From a virus, in the IMG/VR virus record IMGVR_UViG_3300045988_150219, positions 1 to 42,170 of that record: a stretch of 42,170 nucleotides of DNA. The stretch is one strand, 5' to 3'. This document shows, piece after piece, positions 1-42,170 of the stretch. Position numbers and translations under genes: made by a program. The first letter of the stretch is position 1. Each line of letters starts with the position of its first letter. The notes under the pieces were generated by a model. It saw only the letters and a list, made by a program, of their open reading frames with translations. It did not search any database and was not told the DNA's origin.

Positions 1-55
1 TCAATCAAGGAGCCACTCCCCGACAGTGTATGTTTGTGAATGCCCAGCGATTGGA
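1..55. repeat. Terminal direct repeat, copy 1; identical to 42116-42170 (circular-assembly overlap)
   Basis: Bases 1-55 match 42116-42170 exactly by direct comparison. An ORF reads through the join in frame. Confidence 0.95.
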
Positions 56-404
56 CGAGATGGGGATACACAGGAATTTCATGTTTGACCCCACAGGTGA
101 TGACATAGGATTCTGTGCCGAGATTCTACAGCATGGCGGTGAGTTGTTCTACATGAATTGTCTGGGATACGAGTTTATTGATGATGAAATCAACAGCGTT
201 ATCCGCAATGACAGCAATCGCAGACAACTCGCTGCATATGAAGAACAGTGTCTGATGCAGTACGATTTGGGCAAACACTACCTGAAACGCACATTCACAT
301 TCGACGATGGTTCATACAAGTTTGGTGATATTGACTGGAGGGCATATCACCGATTCACAAACACCAAGCCCTCCCGAATAATGTTGGAGGAATTACTACC
401 ATGA
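1..404 (+). CDS. 3' part of the junction-spanning ORF (starts at 41587, 310 aa in total); GT-A-like glycosyltransferase candidate
   Basis: The frame of track ORF 30-404 is open back to base 1 and continuous with the frame opened by ATG 41587 (42145 equals position 30; 42145-41587=558, divisible by 3). Its stop overlaps the next start (ATGA at 401-404). Confidence 0.6.
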   Translation, partial: NQGATPRQCMFVNAQRLDEMGIHRNFMFDPTGDDIGFCAEILQHGGELFYMNCLGYEFIDDEINSVIRNDSNRRQLAAYEEQCLMQYDLGKHYLKRTFTFDDGSYKFGDIDWRAYHRFTNTKPSRIMLEELLP

Positions 405-1996: not shown

Positions 1997-2326
1997 ATGA
2001 TAATCGCAATGGATTTTGACGGAACACTCTGCACGGAATCTTTTCCGGAGATTGGGGAACCATTATATCCCCGAATTGAGTTTTGCAAGAAACTCAAAGC
2101 CCAAGGACACAAATTGATTCTTTGGACATGTCGCACTGGGAAGACACTCGAAGATGCTGTATTATGGTGCAAGAAACACGGGTTGACCTTTGATTCAGTC
2201 AACTGTAATTTACCAGAGATACAGGAAAAATGGGGCGGAGACACCCGAAAAATCTATTGTGATTACTATGTTGACGACAAGAACATATCCTTCCGGGAAT
2301 TACATGAAAAGACCTTCTCGCTTTGA
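1997..2326 (+). CDS. Minimal HAD-superfamily phosphatase, candidate deoxynucleotidase
   Basis: HAD motif I DFDGTL at residues 6-11, WTCR (motif II Thr) and K..YCDYYVDD (motifs III/IV). It is the last gene before the terminator. Confidence 0.6.
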   Translation: MIIAMDFDGTLCTESFPEIGEPLYPRIEFCKKLKAQGHKLILWTCRTGKTLEDAVLWCKKHGLTFDSVNCNLPEIQEKWGGDTRKIYCDYYVDDKNISFRELHEKTFSL

Positions 2327-28829: not shown

Positions 28830-29128
28830 CAGCCACCAAACTGCGTCGATATTACAATTATATACGCAGGGAGCGAGAGTGGTATGCAGACAAATCTTTT
28901 GGATTTGAATGGGAATATTGCGACAAGTGGTTAGAATACGCTGATTTGTTGTTAGCCAAGACAAAACTCCTGCATTATGTCGTGTACGATTGTTACAAGA
29001 TTCAAGATTTGGAAGAACGCTCTGGTTTCAAGACCAGAAACATATTCAGAATCCTTGCAGTTGAAGTCGATTCTGTATATAATGCTCTCCTGAAATTTGA
29101 GGAGAAGTTCTACGATGAGATGTGTTGA
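28778..29128 (+). CDS. Hypothetical protein upstream of the sigma factor gene
   Basis: ATG 28778 is an internal start of track ORF 28715-29128. Confidence 0.5.
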   Translation: MARETRTANQAPNRPSVTATKLRRYYNYIRREREWYADKSFGFEWEYCDKWLEYADLLLAKTKLLHYVVYDCYKIQDLEERSGFKTRNIFRILAVEVDSVYNALLKFEEKFYDEMC

Positions 29129-29136
29129 GGAAGATT

Positions 29137-29667
29137 ATGTCACCAACAGAATTATACCAGAACAACCAGAATCTTGTGTATTATATATACAACAAATCAT
29201 TTGCGAGATTCCCACAGAACGACTTATACAAGGAAGACATAATACAAGATGGCATGACAGCCTTGTGGATGGCTTGTACAAGTTTTGACGAATCGAAAGG
29301 AATACAGCCTACAACATACATATATCCTTGGGTGTACTTCCGTATGTTACACCGAGCAATATATTACACCAAGCATCAGTCTGAAATGGTATCCCTTCAA
29401 TCAGTCATGATGACCAATGAAGAAGGAGAACTCACCCTTGAAGATTTGTTGATGTCCAACAATCAGTTTGAGGATGAAATATGCGTGAGATATTGTATTG
29501 ATATGTGTTGTAAAGACATGTCCCATAAGGAACGTCAAATCATGGAATTGTTGGCACAAGGATACACTCAGACGCAAGTCTCCAACCGCATCGGAATATC
29601 CCAAGCACAAATATCTCGAATTCTCAACAAGTTGCGTCGCAAACTCACGGAGGAACTTCAAGAATGA
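29137..29667 (+). CDS. Sigma-70-family (ECF-size) RNA polymerase sigma factor
   Basis: Region 2: DIIQDGMTALWMACTSFDESKGIQPTTYIYPWVYFRMLHR. Region 4 HTH: ERQIMELLAQGYTQTQVSNRIGISQAQISRILNKLRRKL. ATG 29137 has a GAGGAAG SD. Confidence 0.85.
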   Translation: MSPTELYQNNQNLVYYIYNKSFARFPQNDLYKEDIIQDGMTALWMACTSFDESKGIQPTTYIYPWVYFRMLHRAIYYTKHQSEMVSLQSVMMTNEEGELTLEDLLMSNNQFEDEICVRYCIDMCCKDMSHKERQIMELLAQGYTQTQVSNRIGISQAQISRILNKLRRKLTEELQE

Positions 29668-33375: not shown

Positions 33376-34371
33376 ATGCTGTATAAACAATCGGATGTGC
33401 CATATTGTGGCGTATCTTATGACAACATTCAGAATTCAAATCCCCAAATAAACAGGAATAATTTTGGGATTCTGTATTATTACATTCAAGAACGATACAA
33501 AATACATGTATTGAAGGACGTGTATGGCGTTCAACCACCTTGGACCAAAGACCCAATCTTGTACAAATACCGATTTACCAACATTCGACGAGAACATGAC
33601 CGTGAGACACGGTGGCTTGCTAACAACATATGCCTTAACTCGATGGACGTTGAGAACAAAATTGCGAACATCATACTGTTTCGCATGATAAATAAAAGTT
33701 CCACCTGTCAGCACTTTATGCCTTTGGATTTTGGGCAACCGATAAACTGGGAACCCATAATAGCCGTTAACAACTCTGAACATGAAGGTGCTCTGTTCAC
33801 TAACGCATTTATGGTATCTGGTATGTTGTCTGGCTGCCGCAAGTTATTACAACAGCCCAAAATGGATGCATTGTATGCTGTTGTAGCCGTGGTGAAACAA
33901 TTCTGGGACAACGGGAAGATACACCATCTGGCATCCATACAAACGAATCCTCAAGAATGGTGTGAAGTTTTGAGGGGATTTGGTGCTATGGGGGATTTCT
34001 TAACATACCAAATATGGGTGGATTATACCTATTGTCCCGAATGTCCTTGGAGCGAAAATGAATTTGTCGTGGCAGGTCCAGGATGCAAAGCAGGATTGAA
34101 CTACATATTCACCGATAGGGGTGGTATGACTTATGAAGAGTGTTTATTCTGGTTGCGCAATAACTGGGATTCACTCTGTAAACAATACGGATTCAACTGG
34201 AATCCCAATGAACTGTTTATAGATTTGCCACCACACGACCGATACATGAATGTTATGTCATTGGAGAACTGCATGTGTGAGTTAAGCAAATACATGAAAG
34301 GATTGAACAAATCAGGAAGATTACGAGCAACATATGTATATCATGGAGGAGAAACACACAATGAAAATTGA
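33376..34371 (+). CDS. aGPT-Pplase-like protein (candidate DNA base-hypermodification transferase)
   Basis: PPWTKDPILYKYRFTNIRREHDRETRW, plus GDFLTYQIWVD and AGPGCKAGL. From memory these resemble the W-T-x-D-P-I-L-x-x-Y-R-F-x-N-x-x-R-E-x-D-R-x-T family of alpha-glutamyl/putrescinyl thymine pyrophosphorylase-like proteins. ATG 33376 has a GGAGG SD and lies downstream of P2. Confidence 0.45.
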   Translation: MLYKQSDVPYCGVSYDNIQNSNPQINRNNFGILYYYIQERYKIHVLKDVYGVQPPWTKDPILYKYRFTNIRREHDRETRWLANNICLNSMDVENKIANIILFRMINKSSTCQHFMPLDFGQPINWEPIIAVNNSEHEGALFTNAFMVSGMLSGCRKLLQQPKMDALYAVVAVVKQFWDNGKIHHLASIQTNPQEWCEVLRGFGAMGDFLTYQIWVDYTYCPECPWSENEFVVAGPGCKAGLNYIFTDRGGMTYEECLFWLRNNWDSLCKQYGFNWNPNELFIDLPPHDRYMNVMSLENCMCELSKYMKGLNKSGRLRATYVYHGGETHNEN

Positions 34372-34864
34372 TAGGGATTTGTTTTGTGAAGCACTTAATT
34401 TGGCACAAATGTACGCAGACAACAACAGCACATGCACCAAGACATCTGTTGGTTGCGTCATAATCAAATACGAAACAGAATACCACAATGGCGTTCTGCT
34501 GGGGATTGGCGCAAACAGCGGAGAAGAGAATTGCAAAGAACTCGGATGTTTACGTGTAAGCATGTACGGAGACAACAGCAAATCTCATCGCAGCACTTGC
34601 CGTTGTAAGCATAGTGAAATCAACGCTCTTGCATGTGCTGAATCCCAACACCGCAGCGTGAAAGGTGCTATGGCGTTTGTCACTCGTTATCCTTGCATCA
34701 ATTGCGCCAAAGCCTTAACCAAAGCAGGAATCAAGAAAGTCGTGTATGGGCGACAATTCCCCATTGAGGAAGAGACAAAACAATGGTTCGATTCGCATGG
34801 TGTGGAGTACTACCATATGAAAGATTGGGCAACTGATACAGTTATTCGTGACACAAACAACTGA
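34361..34864 (+). CDS. dCMP deaminase (cytidine/deoxycytidylate deaminase zinc-binding family)
   Basis: Zinc motifs HSEINAL and PCINCAKAL. ATG 34361 has a GGAGGAG SD and overlaps the upstream stop by 11 nt. Confidence 0.85.
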   Translation: MKIDRDLFCEALNLAQMYADNNSTCTKTSVGCVIIKYETEYHNGVLLGIGANSGEENCKELGCLRVSMYGDNSKSHRSTCRCKHSEINALACAESQHRSVKGAMAFVTRYPCINCAKALTKAGIKKVVYGRQFPIEEETKQWFDSHGVEYYHMKDWATDTVIRDTNN

Positions 34865-39412: not shown

Positions 39413-39433
39413 TTTTATATGGAGGACAATATC

Positions 39434-40063
39434 ATGTCACAATCTATGGACCTTGATTTCACAGGTGTAACCACCAGCAACCTTATCCCCGAAGGCACTC
39501 ATGTAGTGCGTATATCTGCTGCGGATTTCAGCAAAGCACAAACAGGCTCTGACCAACTTGAAGTTGAGTTTGAGAACGGCGATGGAGCCACCCGCAAAGG
39601 TTGGTTCTCGCTTGTTCCCCAAGCACTCTGGAAAGTGAAAGGATTCTTGGAAGCAATCGGAATCTCCGCAGATGGAAGAATCAAACTCAACACCAAGAAT
39701 CTTATCGGCAAATACTGCAAAATTGTTGTAGAACCCGACAAGAATGATTCTACAAGATTCATTATCACCAAGTATCTCAAAGCCGAATCGAACAACACAG
39801 TTGCGCCTCAGATGTATGCTCCCGCAGCACCGTTAACATATGACCCTGCTATGATGGCTCCCGCAGGTCCTGCTGCGCCTGTTCAACAGAATGTTCAACC
39901 TGCTCCTGTTGCACAACAGCCCACGACTCCTGCACCCGCACCTGCTATGCATTTGCCCTGGGAAACGGCACAACAACCTGCTCAACCCGTGCAGCAACCC
40001 ATGCAGCAACCCGCAGCACAACAACCCGCATCAATGCCTACACCGCCTTGGCTGGTGAAATAA
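39434..40063 (+). CDS. DUF669-like (SSB-like) protein with a long P/Q/A-rich tail
   Basis: Position after the AAA_24 ATPase. NLIPEGTHVVRISAADFSK is typical of the DUF669 N-terminus. The C-terminal ~85 aa are low complexity (APAAP...QQPAQPVQQPMQQPAAQQP), ending PPWLVK. Confidence 0.6.
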   Translation: MSQSMDLDFTGVTTSNLIPEGTHVVRISAADFSKAQTGSDQLEVEFENGDGATRKGWFSLVPQALWKVKGFLEAIGISADGRIKLNTKNLIGKYCKIVVEPDKNDSTRFIITKYLKAESNNTVAPQMYAPAAPLTYDPAMMAPAGPAAPVQQNVQPAPVAQQPTTPAPAPAMHLPWETAQQPAQPVQQPMQQPAAQQPASMPTPPWLVK

Positions 40064-40084: not shown

Positions 40085-41044
40085 ATGAACATACCCAACG
40101 ACACTGGCAACATGTGGAGATTAGACCGCTATGTTGAATATTACAACATACGGCATTCCCAGAATGATGGAGATGTCCATAATCTCGGAATCGTATGCCA
40201 AGACGCAGACCTTGACACAAAAGTGTGGATGGCATTCTTGTATTCGACTTGTTACAGTGTTGCCACGACATGTTTCTTGTTTACGCATTTCCCTTCCATT
40301 GAGTATGCCACCGAATCCCGATTGAGACAATTCTGGGCAGAATACAAATCGAAACTCATATTCCAATCCGACAGAAGATATGTGAAGAACATGGATAAAT
40401 TCTGCGACATAGTTATGTCGTACAAGGAAAAGGTTGCTGGCAGACGGCAATTCGAGATTTGCGAAGAATTGGGGTGGAACCAAACTGCAATCTACAAGTG
40501 GTTCACTTCTGTGTATTATTGTGGAAGATTCTCTGCCATGCTATTCATGGAAGCAGTTTACGGCTTGATGGGAAAACCCTTAACACAAGAAAGTTATCTT
40601 GATTGGAATTCCTGCAAGACTTGTTCACAAGGATTGCTGACAATCTCGTATCAAGATGACCTTGTAGCGGAAGTAGAACACAGGGATTTCACTCCCCAAG
40701 AAATAGAATGCCTCAAAATAACGCTGGAATATGTTATGCGGTACACACAATCCCATCTGGATTACCCAATCAATTTCAGTCGAATAATTGGGTATCTGTG
40801 CTCATATTTCAAGTTGTACAAACAAACGAGATATTTGGAATACTACACAGACAGAAGATTGGAAGAACTGCTTCACTACAAGAAGGTGTTCCCAGAGTCA
40901 CCCCTGTGGGATTACTTGTTTGAGATTCGTTACAAAAATGTTCCTCATAGCATTCTTGGGGAACTGAATGGATGGAGCGGAATCCGCAAAGAGAAGTGTA
41001 AGGAATTTGTGACTTATGGCAAAATTGACTGTAATCAACCTTAG
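40085..41044 (+). CDS. Second aGPT-Pplase-like protein (different clade), candidate DNA transferase
   Basis: 319-aa helix-rich protein with FQSDRRY and GRFSAMLFMEAVYG motifs. It overlaps the downstream P-loop kinase-like ORF by 29 nt. The family call comes from memory and gene context only. Confidence 0.4.
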   Translation: MNIPNDTGNMWRLDRYVEYYNIRHSQNDGDVHNLGIVCQDADLDTKVWMAFLYSTCYSVATTCFLFTHFPSIEYATESRLRQFWAEYKSKLIFQSDRRYVKNMDKFCDIVMSYKEKVAGRRQFEICEELGWNQTAIYKWFTSVYYCGRFSAMLFMEAVYGLMGKPLTQESYLDWNSCKTCSQGLLTISYQDDLVAEVEHRDFTPQEIECLKITLEYVMRYTQSHLDYPINFSRIIGYLCSYFKLYKQTRYLEYYTDRRLEELLHYKKVFPESPLWDYLFEIRYKNVPHSILGELNGWSGIRKEKCKEFVTYGKIDCNQP

Positions 41045-41594
41045 AGGCACATCAGGTAGTGGGAAGACGTACATTGTCAAGCAAATCCTGGCTCATGGGA
41101 ATTGGTCCAGATGGACTGACAGCAATGGAAAAATCCTTGGGTATTACAACGAATCCAATCGATGGGCAATTGTTGGTTCTTATGAGACTCCTTGTGGGGG
41201 TTGCGATACAATCAAGACCCAAGCGGAAGTCAAATCCCGAATCTACATGTTGCTTCAATGGGGATACAATGTTCTGTTTGAGGGACTTGTAATCAGTACC
41301 ATTACACAAGGCTGGCTGGATTTTGCGAACTCAATAAAACCCCAAGCCAACACCATGTTTTGTTACTTGAACACCCCGATTGAAACTTGTATTCAGCAAG
41401 TTCGTTCCAGAAGAGAGAGCAACGGAAAATCACCCGAGTTCAATACAGACAATACTGTTAACAGAGTTAAGTCCATACAATCCACTCGGGATAAACTCCG
41501 GAATGCAGGATTCTGGTGTGTGGAAGGAAGTTCCTCAGACATACTGCATTACTTGAATCAATTCTTTGGGATAGGAGGAGATTTGGATGTTTAG
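41016..41594 (+). CDS. P-loop kinase, candidate 5-hydroxymethylpyrimidine DNA kinase (5-HMUDK-like)
   Basis: Walker A GTSGSGKTY at residues 11-19 and a GSYETPCGGCD motif. It is sandwiched by overlaps between the aGPT-Pplase-like and GT-A-like ORFs. Confidence 0.5.
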   Translation: MAKLTVINLRGTSGSGKTYIVKQILAHGNWSRWTDSNGKILGYYNESNRWAIVGSYETPCGGCDTIKTQAEVKSRIYMLLQWGYNVLFEGLVISTITQGWLDFANSIKPQANTMFCYLNTPIETCIQQVRSRRESNGKSPEFNTDNTVNRVKSIQSTRDKLRNAGFWCVEGSSSDILHYLNQFFGIGGDLDV

Positions 41595-42170
41595 ACGAGA
41601 ACAAATGGAGTATCTCTTGAATACAGCCAACGGAATTGGACCAATATGTATTCCCACCTATAAGCGGTGGAGCCGAGAAGACAACAAAGCACTATCGTTC
41701 TTGGAGTTATGTCAACCCGATATTCGGGATAACATACACATATTTGTTCGTCCGGAGCAAGCCCAAGCATATCACGAATCGTTCCCGTGGGTACACATTG
41801 TTGTATTGCCAGCCCAGATACAAGGGCTGGCAAGCACTCGGGAATACATATGCTGGTATGTATTGAATGTGCTGCATGAACCCATATTCATGGATATGGA
41901 TGATGACGTGACTTATCTCTTGTATCTGTGGTATGATGAAATCAAGCAGTTTTCCCATTATTCCAGAGGGGTTGAACAACGCCACTCTGAGACGATTCGA
42001 TTGGGATTCAATTTGGCACAATACGTGTTCAACAAAGCCCCGAAAACTGTGTTGGGCGGACTTGCCCGAAAACGATTCATCCACAAACCCGAAAACTCTC
42101 AGCGCATGGCAAGTATCAATCAAGGAGCCACTCCCCGACAGTGTATGTTTGTGAATGCCCAGCGATTGGA
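41587..42170 (+). CDS. 5' part of the junction-spanning ORF (continues to 404); GT-A-like glycosyltransferase candidate
   Basis: ATG 41587 lies 5 nt after AGGAGGAG and overlaps the kinase stop. The frame is open to the window end by hand translation. Carries ICIPTYKRW (a GT2-like first strand) and FMDMDDDV (DxD-like). It is absent from the track because it has no stop within the window. Confidence 0.6.
   Translation, partial: MFRREQMEYLLNTANGIGPICIPTYKRWSREDNKALSFLELCQPDIRDNIHIFVRPEQAQAYHESFPWVHIVVLPAQIQGLASTREYICWYVLNVLHEPIFMDMDDDVTYLLYLWYDEIKQFSHYSRGVEQRHSETIRLGFNLAQYVFNKAPKTVLGGLARKRFIHKPENSQRMASINQGATPRQCMFVNAQRL
42116..42170. repeat. Terminal direct repeat, copy 2; identical to 1-55
   Basis: Exact 55/55 identity with the window start. 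Confidence 0.95.

Follow-up and report, generated by a model that had tools for sequence, protein, structure and literature searches.

A probable pyrimidine-hypermodification gene set in an uncultured phage pairs a dCMP-type hydroxymethylase signature with a DNA nucleobase kinase and an amino-acid:DNA transferase homologue

In the phages that hypermodify thymidine, namely ViI, M6, PaMx11, phiW-14 and SP10 (Iyer et al. 2013; PMC5889632; PMC8989533; PMC11472151), the gene for a P-loop DNA kinase adjoins that for an amino-acid:DNA transferase (AADT) homologue of the aGPT-Pplase2 type, which has a conserved cysteine. The same gene set includes an HMUDK_hel paralogue, a ThyA-family hydroxymethylase, a deoxynucleoside monophosphate (dNMP) kinase and a dCMP deaminase, and it lies in a replication module with a family-A DNA polymerase. 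Every characterised pathway with such a kinase and AADT starts from a dUMP hydroxymethylase or a thymine dioxygenase. Here we describe a gene block in the IMG/VR virus record IMGVR_UViG_3300045988_150219, which was analysed over its whole length of 42,170 nucleotides (the window). The window encodes all of these components, but its ThyA homologue is of the dCMP type (D177/T147) where those of the thymidine hypermodifiers are of the dUMP type (N177/N147). It also differs from them in having a TET-associated glycosyltransferase (TAGT) inside the cluster, and in having no pyridoxal phosphate (PLP), radical SAM, FAD or acetyltransferase tailoring enzyme among the open reading frames (ORFs) scanned; the Pfam scans covered the larger ORFs of the window, about 36 in number, but not some two dozen shorter ones. 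Furthermore, the AADT homologue (here called ADDT, after its Pfam family) has no proximal glutamate, and HMUDK_hel lies apart from the kinase and is coupled to the deaminase. In the literature searched, no system was found that combines a dCMP-type hydroxymethylase, a nucleobase kinase and an AADT.

We are confident that the block (Table 1) is a gene set for the hypermodification of pyrimidines in phage DNA, and the decorated base or bases are probably made by an undescribed route. An earlier reading of the sequence, made without database searches (the original prediction), had proposed a base-hypermodification operon that runs through the contig junction, follows the same core logic as the thymidine hypermodifiers and contains no known tailoring enzyme. 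The protein families, the residues that diagnose substrate choice and the gene order in related phages are considered in turn below.

The ThyA homologue scores 118.1 bits against Pfam Thymidylat_synt (cut-off 24.3), and falls far below every NCBIfam thymidylate synthase cut-off (best 93.6 against 327). Its residues, given here in E. coli ThyA numbering, were read using the diagnostic rules of Lee et al. 2026 (PMC13326640). By these rules, Asn at position 177 indicates a dUMP substrate and Asp a dCMP substrate; a bulky hydrophobic residue at position 143 indicates a methyl product and Asp or Glu a hydroxymethyl product; and Asn at position 169 indicates a 5-hydroxy-dCMP synthase of the RB69 gp48 type. 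Position 177 is an experimentally reciprocal specificity switch; N177D makes thymidylate synthase prefer dCMP (rule as in PMC13326640). At positions 143/146/147/169/177 the window enzyme has D/C/T/D/D, identical to T4 gp42 and to the enzyme of VPE25, an Enterococcus phage with cytosine-modified DNA (PMC4999554). It has the complete set expected of a 5-hydroxymethyl-dCMP synthase (Cys146, Glu58, Arg166, Asp169, Asp177 and an acidic residue at 143), and it fails the thymidylate synthase signature, with D, T and D where Leu143, His147 and Asn177 are expected. The D179N variant of the T4 enzyme is said to prefer dUMP, a result credited to Graves et al. in 1992.

The comparison was extended to the ThyA homologues of ViI, YuA (M6-like), Ab19 (PaMx11-type), SPO1L2 and LysYB1, which are phages known to make bases derived from 5-hydroxymethyluracil (5hmU), or close relatives of these. 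All five have D143/C146/N147/D169/N177, and all have a one-residue insertion before position 177 that is absent from the window enzyme. At position 165 the window enzyme has Met rather than Asn, which groups it with T4 gp42 and VPE25 and away from the five dUMP-hydroxymethylase lineages. Because of its D143/T147/D169/D177 signature, the enzyme is predicted to make 5-hydroxymethyl-dCMP and not 5-hydroxymethyl-dUMP. A 5-hydroxy-dCMP synthase of the RB69 gp48 type was also considered, and was rejected because Asp169 is retained.

The P-loop protein matches the Pfam family of 5-hmdU DNA kinases at 46.6 bits (cut-off 27), with other kinase families scoring at most 17 bits. It aligns from end to end, at 32% identity, with Ab19 gp12, which is the kinase in a PaMx11-type cluster. 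It contains the sequences RGTSGSGKT (Walker A) and YETPCGGCDT; the Walker A motif and 'YETxCGGCDTI' also occur in Ab19 gp12. No sequence relatives of the kinase were found in the PDB. The commercial enzyme 5-HMUDK does not phosphorylate 5-hydroxymethylcytosine (5hmC) (PMC6457204). The source of 5hmU that would be expected for such a kinase, either a dUMP hydroxymethylase or a thymine dioxygenase, was not found: the only ThyA homologue is of the dCMP type, and there is no Tet_JBP match in the scanned ORFs. Any 5hmU would thus require the deaminase step proposed below.

The ADDT homologue matches its Pfam family at 41.4 bits (cut-off 26.2), although the match spans only residues 31–171, and the same Pfam model matches 12 of 19 family members. 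In a tblastn search, 93% of the protein aligned, with 24% identity and E values of 1e-10 to 1e-11, to the gp247-type protein encoded by ViI-like phages; gp247 of ViI itself acts as a serine:DNA transferase (PMC8989533). An AlphaFold2 model was generated with a mean predicted local distance difference test score (pLDDT) of 93.3. Comparison of this model with the PDB using Foldseek gave PaMx11 gp46 (8z2m, 8z2n) as the best match, with probability 1.00 and TM 0.56–0.61 over about 300 columns, the E value being only 1e-2. This 5-phosphomethyl-dU (5-PmdU) glycinyltransferase, which has an all-helical, DNA-glycosylase-like fold, is the only real match in the PDB. Sequence searches of the PDB, with the homologue or with a 19-sequence profile, missed gp46, and only the fold search recovered it.

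Cys239 is invariant in all 19 homologues and aligns with the catalytic cysteine of the gp46-like proteins (Cys247 of gp46) and of the gp247-like proteins; it is therefore the putative catalytic residue. Together with a set of invariant charged residues, it is retained among ADDT sequences down to 25% identity. The glutamate that lies close to this cysteine in gp46 is essential in characterised enzymes, where a Glu to Ala change abolishes the activity of M6 gp51 and ViI gp247, and the Glu/Thr pair of gp46 helps to hold a metal that contacts O4 of thymine (PMC11472151). The sister phages and a large subgroup of ADDT homologues with the motif 'GK[IL]C' resemble the window protein in having no proximal Glu. 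We considered whether loss of the Glu/Thr pair could be a sign of a cytosine substrate, and dropped the argument because the loss does not track the type of ThyA: both motif types occur with a D-type ThyA and without any ThyA. Many ADDTs linked to a D-type ThyA keep E-[ST]-x-L-C, and that of LysYB1, with an N-type hydroxymethylase, does not.

HMUDK_hel (formerly aGPT-Pplase1) matches its Pfam family at 194.9 bits (cut-off 25) over model positions 4–273 of 281, and is 26% identical to Ab19 gp13. It can be aligned to ADDT, and the two have an invariant Gly and Cys in common. In HMUDK_hel, the counterpart of the active-site pair of AADT is intact, as a Glu-x3-Cys motif ('LENCMC'). As the window ADDT has lost this Glu, the 'helical domain' of HMUDK_hel may be catalytic, and not only an accessory to the kinase.

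The first 38 nt of the deaminase gene lie within the end of the HMUDK_hel gene. The protein scores 53.8 bits against its Pfam family (cut-off 25), and its best PDB matches are the dCMP deaminases of S. mutans and T4, with which the zinc motifs H-x-E (HSE) and PCxxC (PCINC) are aligned. Human DCTD reportedly deaminates 5hmdCMP. Phage PF00383 deaminases encoded in cis with D177 ThyA homologues mostly prefer 5mdCTP or 5hmdCTP; one of them turns 5hmdCTP into 5hmdUTP, and for seven, co-expression with T4 gp42 and gp1 led to 5hmdU in plasmid DNA (bioRxiv 10.1101/2024.12.05.627091). A second scan of IMG/VR, with deaminases of the clade as query, yielded 59 deaminase loci. HMUDK_hel is directly upstream of the deaminase in about 50 of these, a TAGT glycosyltransferase is inserted between the two in 14, and the deaminase follows ADDT and the kinase (HMUDK) in four. 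Eight large contigs had seemed to contain no deaminase. For seven, the second scan located the gene just past the 10-kb flank, and the eighth is truncated on that side. Among related contigs of 35 kb or more with ADDT, the kinase and a D-type ThyA, the deaminase is therefore missing only from a single truncated one.

The glycosyltransferase ORF can be read only across the junction of the contig. It matches the Pfam TAGT family at 45.4 bits (cut-off 27.5) and carries the invariant DMDDD (D103, D105–107). Its AlphaFold2 model (pLDDT 93.6) adopts a GT-A fold. Among viral structures, those most similar to it are TAGT-domain proteins of phages and a T-even beta-glucosyl-HMC-alpha-glucosyltransferase; no sequence relatives were found in the PDB. 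Judging from its family (Pyle et al.) and gene context, the enzyme may act on a hydroxymethyl-pyrimidine in DNA.

Related loci were fetched, six from ENA/Logan and 80 from IMG/VR, and their ORFs were typed with HMMs built from the window proteins. The ADDT homologues are mostly on contigs of about 40–55 kb, and at 83 of the 89 related loci the kinase gene lies next to that of ADDT. All 36 loci that have both ADDT and a ThyA homologue show the D/C/T/D/D signature, with Asn177 in none; these loci fall into 13 clusters at 70% identity and 22 at 90%. The recurrent order is ADDT, kinase, (glycosyltransferase), (TMK-like kinase), D-type ThyA, small ORF, HAD, and the sister phages, whose ADDT is 66% identical, show complete synteny with the window. 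An N-type hydroxymethylase accompanies ADDT at one locus only, that of the cultured Lysinibacillus phage LysYB1, a spounavirus, and its ADDT is of the same subfamily.

These results support much of the original prediction. Its refuting conditions had been a lack of similarity of the two proteins now called ADDT and HMUDK_hel to aGPT-Pplase families, or of the P-loop protein to DNA kinases; all three match those families above the Pfam cut-offs, and the Foldseek comparison that it proposed pairs the ADDT model with PaMx11 gp46. The motifs that it quoted are present (GTSGSGKT and CGGCD in the kinase, FQSDRRY and GRFSAMLFME in ADDT). Its GT-A-like protein is borne out by the TAGT match and the modelled fold, and its TS-family, dTMP-kinase-like and HAD assignments by matches to Thymidylat_synt, Thymidylate_kin and a BT0820-type HAD family. 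No PLP, radical-SAM or oxidoreductase domain was identified by Pfam in the scanned ORFs, as it had stated. Its list of ThyA, kinase and transferase families thus stands, but it missed the dCMP deaminase conserved with HMUDK_hel. The 'same core logic' as in the thymidine hypermodifiers is not supported, because the ThyA homologue has Asp177 and Thr147 and not the N147/N177 of the dUMP hydroxymethylases.

On the basis of these observations, we put forward a model in which one hydroxymethylase feeds two modified bases. We favour it tentatively, with slightly less than even confidence. The ThyA homologue would hydroxymethylate dCMP, not dUMP, and the TMK-like kinase together with host NDP kinase would raise 5hm-dCMP to the triphosphate. 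The deaminase, translationally coupled to HMUDK_hel, would turn part of the 5hm-dC nucleotide pool into 5hm-dU, and the phage family-A DNA polymerase would build DNA with both 5hmC and 5hmU. In the DNA, the TAGT glycosyltransferase would add a sugar to 5hmC, which is the known type of TAGT substrate. The P-loop kinase with HMUDK_hel would phosphorylate 5hmU, and ADDT, by means of Cys239, would put an amino acid or amine in the place of the phosphate. Conditioning of the nucleotide pool would fall to the HAD phosphatase and the small ORF. In this scheme we infer the substrate of the deaminase, the base used by each DNA-level enzyme, the donor sugar and the nucleophile, whereas the family membership of each protein, the ThyA signature and the conserved gene linkage are demonstrated. 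The absence of decarboxylase, radical-SAM and oxidoreductase genes from the scanned ORFs suggests that modification ends with the primary ADDT adduct, either as such or glycosylated.

The dual-base model is favoured because every enzyme in it keeps the known substrate of its family, and because it explains the coupling of HMUDK_hel to the deaminase. It also fits the rejection of 5hmC by 5-HMUDK and the retention of the Glu/Thr motif in many ADDTs linked to a D-type ThyA. That substrates are conserved is argued from the 32% identity of the window kinase to a kinase of a PaMx11-type 5hmU cluster, and from the presence of the same ADDT subfamily beside an N-type hydroxymethylase in LysYB1. Several points weigh against the model. 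The proximal Glu (Glu243 of gp46) is missing from the window ADDT, which in the alignment, the only basis for this comparison, has 'IIGYLC' where gp46-like proteins have 'VETILC'. The deaminase sequence shows no sign of a preference for 5-substituted cytidines and has an ordinary ComEB/T4-cd-type look; the enzyme could simply feed dUMP to the host ThyA. The glycosyltransferase could equally act on 5hmU, and it has homologues of 42–48% identity in ParB-linked cassettes; ParB-dependent systems are reported to make 5hmU (PMC13229309). No dCTPase, dUTPase or dTTPase that would exclude canonical nucleotides was found in the window. Finally, Microbacterium phages have HMUDK_hel, a D-type ThyA and a TAGT glycosyltransferase, with no kinase or ADDT by Pfam in the proteins scanned and no annotated deaminase within 6 kb, and HMUDK_hel is thus not strictly tied to a 5hmU branch.

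Three other readings have to be weighed against the dual-base model. If the DNA contained 5hmC only, the kinase and HMUDK_hel would phosphorylate 5hmC, ADDT would add an amino acid or amine to the cytosine methylene, the glycosyltransferase would glycosylate the remaining 5hmC or the appended group, and the deaminase would only supply dUMP for host thymidylate synthesis. Such a pathway would yield a 5-(aminoacyl- or aminoalkyl-methyl)cytosine, perhaps also bearing a sugar; if true, the thymidine hypermodifications would have their first equivalent on cytosine, and the natural DNA bases would gain a new class. The sole encoded source of a hydroxymethyl-pyrimidine in all 36 related loci is indeed a dCMP-type ThyA, and it is paired with a TMK-like kinase as in the C-modified VPE25. 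Glycosyltransferase genes are interleaved with ADDT and the kinase, for example in the order GT-ADDT-GT-HMUDK at locus L019, and the window ADDT has lost the pair that holds the O4-contacting metal in PaMx11 gp46. Michael addition of the cysteine to C6 should be feasible on cytosine, by analogy with the chemistry of dCMP hydroxymethylase and the C5-methyltransferases. The loss of Glu is, however, uncorrelated with the type of ThyA, the characterised 5-HMUDK rejects 5hmC, and the kinase and HMUDK_hel are 26–32% identical to those of a 5hmU phage. This reading would also need a switch of base specificity in two enzyme families, and leaves the tight linkage of HMUDK_hel to the deaminase unexplained. 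A literature search for a 5hmC DNA kinase, a cytosine-directed AADT, a function of aGPT-Pplase1 and DNA modification in Microbacterium phages gave nothing relevant, and no such base or activity was found. We consider 5hmC-only DNA unlikely, though it is the most credible of the three.

The families to which the kinase, ADDT and HMUDK_hel belong point most simply to the canonical thymidine route, in which the Asp177 enzyme would still use dUMP, supplied by the deaminase, according to the ViI/M6 scheme, and the glycosyltransferase would be a lineage-specific tailoring enzyme. It could then act on 5hmU, to give a product like base J, or on the hydroxyl of an appended Ser or Thr. PaMx11-type phages and Acinetobacter phage SH-Ab 15599 also combine a dCMP deaminase with their dUMP hydroxymethylases, and the trypanosome base-J glucosyltransferase has structural relatives among the GT-A DNA glycosyltransferases of phages (bioRxiv 10.1101/2023.12.21.572611). 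This route would nevertheless have to override the reciprocal dUMP/dCMP switch at position 177, where the window has Asp; and Thr147, Met165 and the absence of an insertion before 177 also place the enzyme with T4 gp42 and VPE25. We therefore regard it as improbable. The least probable reading in our estimate is a plain T4-like glycosyl-5hmC phage, in which the kinase, ADDT and HMUDK_hel would be relics or unrelated to base modification. In its favour, the D-type ThyA, TMK-like kinase and TAGT glycosyltransferase stand alone in locus L100, and are accompanied by HMUDK_hel with no kinase or ADDT detected in Microbacterium phages, and the window ADDT is without the essential Glu. It is hard to reconcile with the conservation of ADDT and kinase as adjacent, overlapping genes in 83 of 89 loci, with the retention of Cys239 and the charged residues at 25% identity, with a kinase whose Walker A and family motifs are intact, or with the confidently folded ADDT model.

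Table 1. Positions of the hypermodification genes and the closing hairpin in the 42,170-nt window.
Feature	Position	Strand	Basis
HMUDK_hel (formerly aGPT-Pplase1), helical ADDT paralogue	33376-34371	+	Pfam PF18723
dCMP-deaminase-family enzyme	34334-34864	+	Pfam dCMP_cyt_deam_1 (PF00383)
Amino-acid:DNA transferase homologue (ADDT, formerly aGPT-Pplase2), 319 aa	40085-41044	+	Pfam PF18724, phrog_3271
P-loop DNA-nucleobase kinase homologue, 192 aa	41016-41594	+	Pfam HMUDK_HMUD1 PF18748; phrog_800, E 1e-28
TAGT-family GT-A glycosyltransferase, N-terminal part	41587-42115	+	Pfam PF20691, junction reconstruction
TAGT-family glycosyltransferase, C-terminal part of the same 310-aa ORF	1-404	+	junction reconstruction
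Thymidylate-kinase-family (TMK-like) short dNMP kinase, 152 aa	401-859	+	Pfam Thymidylate_kin
ThyA homologue, 5-hydroxymethyl-dCMP synthase signature, 275 aa	856-1683	+	Pfam Thymidylat_synt
Small ORF, 108 aa	1667-1993	+	slot between ThyA and HAD
Minimal capless HAD phosphatase, 109 aa, DFDGT motif	1997-2326	+	NCBIfam, PHROG
Perfect 13-nt inverted repeat	2307-2319 + 2325-2337 (span 2307-2337)	none	AAAAGACCTTCTC/GAGAAGGTCTTTT, 5-nt loop

Bases 1–55 of the contig are identical to bases 42116–42170, an exact direct repeat of 55 bp, and the contig is accordingly a circle of 42,115 bp. An exact terminal direct repeat is what an assembler typically leaves when it closes a circular or terminally redundant genome. 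Once the overlap is removed, the glycosyltransferase ORF crosses the junction as a single frame. The block is 4,357 nt long and closes at a 13-nt hairpin. Its genes overlap by 29 nt (41044/41016), 8 nt (41594/41587), 4 nt (404/401), 4 nt (859/856) and 17 nt (1683/1667), and the last two are separated by a 3-nt gap (1993/1997). The hairpin has an A-tract on one side and a T-tract on the other, overlaps the stop of the last gene, and is shared with a convergent minus-strand gene that ends at 2343; it is likely to be a bidirectional terminator that closes the block. The plus-strand arm runs from about 26.2 kb on through the junction, and no plus-strand terminator-like site was found between 36.5 and 42.17 kb. 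For this reason the block is probably the distal end of a longer plus-strand unit for replication and nucleotide metabolism, and not a self-contained operon. All the ORFs named in the original prediction were found at their coordinates on the plus strand, and the coordinates and the 55-bp repeat confirm their overlaps and the frame that crosses the junction. The proposed operon survives as a single abutting block with a perfect 13-bp hairpin, but probably not as a separate transcription unit. Just upstream of ADDT, a protein encoded at 39419–40063 has a long Pro/Ala/Gln-rich C-terminal tail and no family match; in relatives, a DUF669 protein occupies this slot.

The remaining genes of the block have probable roles in nucleotide metabolism. 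The TMK-like kinase scores 48.3 bits against Thymidylate_kin (cut-off 27), which is below the NCBIfam cut-off for a dTMP kinase equivalog, and probably phosphorylates a hydroxymethyl-dNMP. The pair formed by its gene and that of ThyA is also found in VPE25 and in L100. The family of this kinase might be taken to point to a uracil nucleotide; this was rejected, because the C-modified VPE25 has the same pair with a D-type ThyA. The HAD protein scores 107 bits against the NCBIfam BT0820 family, below its cut-off of 165, and also matches phrog_24386 and phrog_1238. It follows the ThyA homologue in 33 of the 36 loci with ADDT and ThyA, and also in L100, which has neither kinase nor ADDT; it is probably a nucleotide-pool phosphatase. 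The small ORF has no Pfam, PHROG or NCBIfam match, and is conserved in the sister phages. In the clade, a small protein of 100–140 residues always lies between the ThyA homologue and HAD (e.g. L053 13160–13510, L023 18340–18642), and forms a conserved family with the motif 'W.H.CY...QGW.RVW' and no Pfam match. When the window ORF is compared with this family, only an 'HxCY' patch aligns (hhalign probability 28%).

The phage is probably siphovirus-like (long-tailed) and infects gut Clostridia. Its minus-strand arm encodes the terminase, portal, major head protein, tape measure, Dit and a baseplate protein. The plus-strand arm encodes a single-stranded DNA-binding protein, a sigma factor, the family-A DNA polymerase, a helicase, a D5-type primase, a PD-(D/E)XK exonuclease and a Sak4-like ATPase. 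The sigma factor is of the sigma-70 family, with regions 2 and 4, and its gene (29122–29667) is just upstream of that for the polymerase. The large terminase subunit is 45% identical to those of Clostridium and Clostridioides phages, and the polymerase 35% identical to those of C. perfringens phages. There are no tRNA genes in the window. Megablast of 22 kb against 50,697 phage records gave no close DNA relative, and so no annotated relative could be used for comparison.

Modification modules are shuffled among lineages, as is shown by the recurrence of glycosyltransferase homologues and HMUDK_hel in different combinations. The cassettes of L098 and L099 have the order ParB-TAGT-rSAM, where rSAM is a radical SAM enzyme. 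In L100 (10001–13918), a TAGT gene and a radical-SAM/SPASM enzyme occupy the slot of the window ADDT and kinase, and are followed by the TMK-like kinase, D-type ThyA, small ORF and HAD, with 40–45% identity to the window proteins. The Microbacterium phages provide a further combination.

Some individual loci deserve mention. The sister phages have a full glyceraldehyde-3-phosphate dehydrogenase gene (Gp_dh_N/Gp_dh_C, 362 aa) among the tail genes (L009 20154–20951; L010 16427–17515, minus strand), and tblastn found no counterpart in the window. A 43-kb relative with 37% ADDT identity (L011 8540–10010) has an Fe-dependent alcohol dehydrogenase and a HAD_2 hydrolase directly upstream of ADDT and kinase, and no glycosyltransferase; these may represent a different module for tailoring or for supply of the nucleophile. 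The temperate locus L014 (8752–12620), which has an integrase, encodes ParB_N, kinase, ADDT with the canonical 'VETSLC', an acetyltransferase and a radical SAM enzyme, and no ThyA homologue. It resembles the ParB-dependent post-replicative T-dioxygenase systems. An ADDT-kinase pair is also found on a contig that looks like a Bacteroidota chromosome (L013 9333–11576), with no phage genes nearby; its neighbours are a Por secretion tail protein, an RHS/YD toxin and an IS1595 transposase. In L025 and L026 (9962–11566) the ADDT homologue is a single ORF of about 534 residues with no separate kinase match, apparently an ADDT-kinase fusion, and P0004 likewise bears the marks of both PF18748 and PF18724.

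Apart from the thymidine hypermodifiers, three groups of described systems invite comparison. The pre-replicative glycosyl-5hmC pathways of T-even phages, of VPE25 (PMC4999554) and of the metagenomic GT-A plus ThyS clusters of Pyle et al. (bioRxiv 10.1101/2023.12.21.572611, Cell Rep 2024) are alike in having a D-type ThyA, a dNMP kinase and a DNA glycosyltransferase, and a dCMP deaminase is associated with ThyS-containing metagenomic GT-A pathways (bioRxiv 10.1101/2023.12.21.572611). They differ in having no nucleobase kinase and no amino-acid:DNA transferase. T4 and VPE25, in addition, use GT-B glucosyltransferases together with dCTPase/dUTPase, neither of which was found in the window. The deaminative supply of dTTP of the Xp12 type (bioRxiv 10.1101/2024.12.05.627091) likewise combines a D177 ThyA and a PF00383 deaminase in one phage. 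There, however, ThyA makes 5m-dCMP and deamination yields ordinary dTTP, whereas D143 of the window enzyme predicts 5hm-dCMP, so that deamination would yield 5hm-dU nucleotides for hypermodification; and the deaminase is linked to ThyA in the Xp12 type and to HMUDK_hel here. The Microbacterium cluster-EA phages (e.g. Morrigan, OR253914) are also tailed phages of about 40 kb, in which a single block encodes HMUDK_hel (annotated as 'aGPT-Pplase1 domain protein'), a D-type ThyA, a TAGT glycosyltransferase 31% identical to that of the window and a TMK-like kinase. They differ in having no P-loop HMUDK or ADDT by Pfam and no annotated deaminase in the stretch seen, with a MazG-like pyrophosphohydrolase instead.

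Whether a given restriction or CRISPR system can cut a phage is decided by its base hypermodifications, and these have also been a source of tools for epigenetic sequencing, among them 5-HMUDK, the glucosyltransferases and the mSCD deaminases. The present locus would also caution annotators against taking a match to '5-hmdU DNA kinase + AADT' alone as a sign that thymine is modified. In this phage, and in at least 13 distinct uncultured phage lineages with genomes of about 40–55 kb, the DNA-level enzymes known from the thymidine hypermodifiers are coupled only to a dCMP-type hydroxymethylase and a linked deaminase. Compared with the described pathways this would be new either way, whether it reflects a deaminative branch, in which one hydroxymethylase feeds both pyrimidines, or a kinase and AADT that work on 5hmC.

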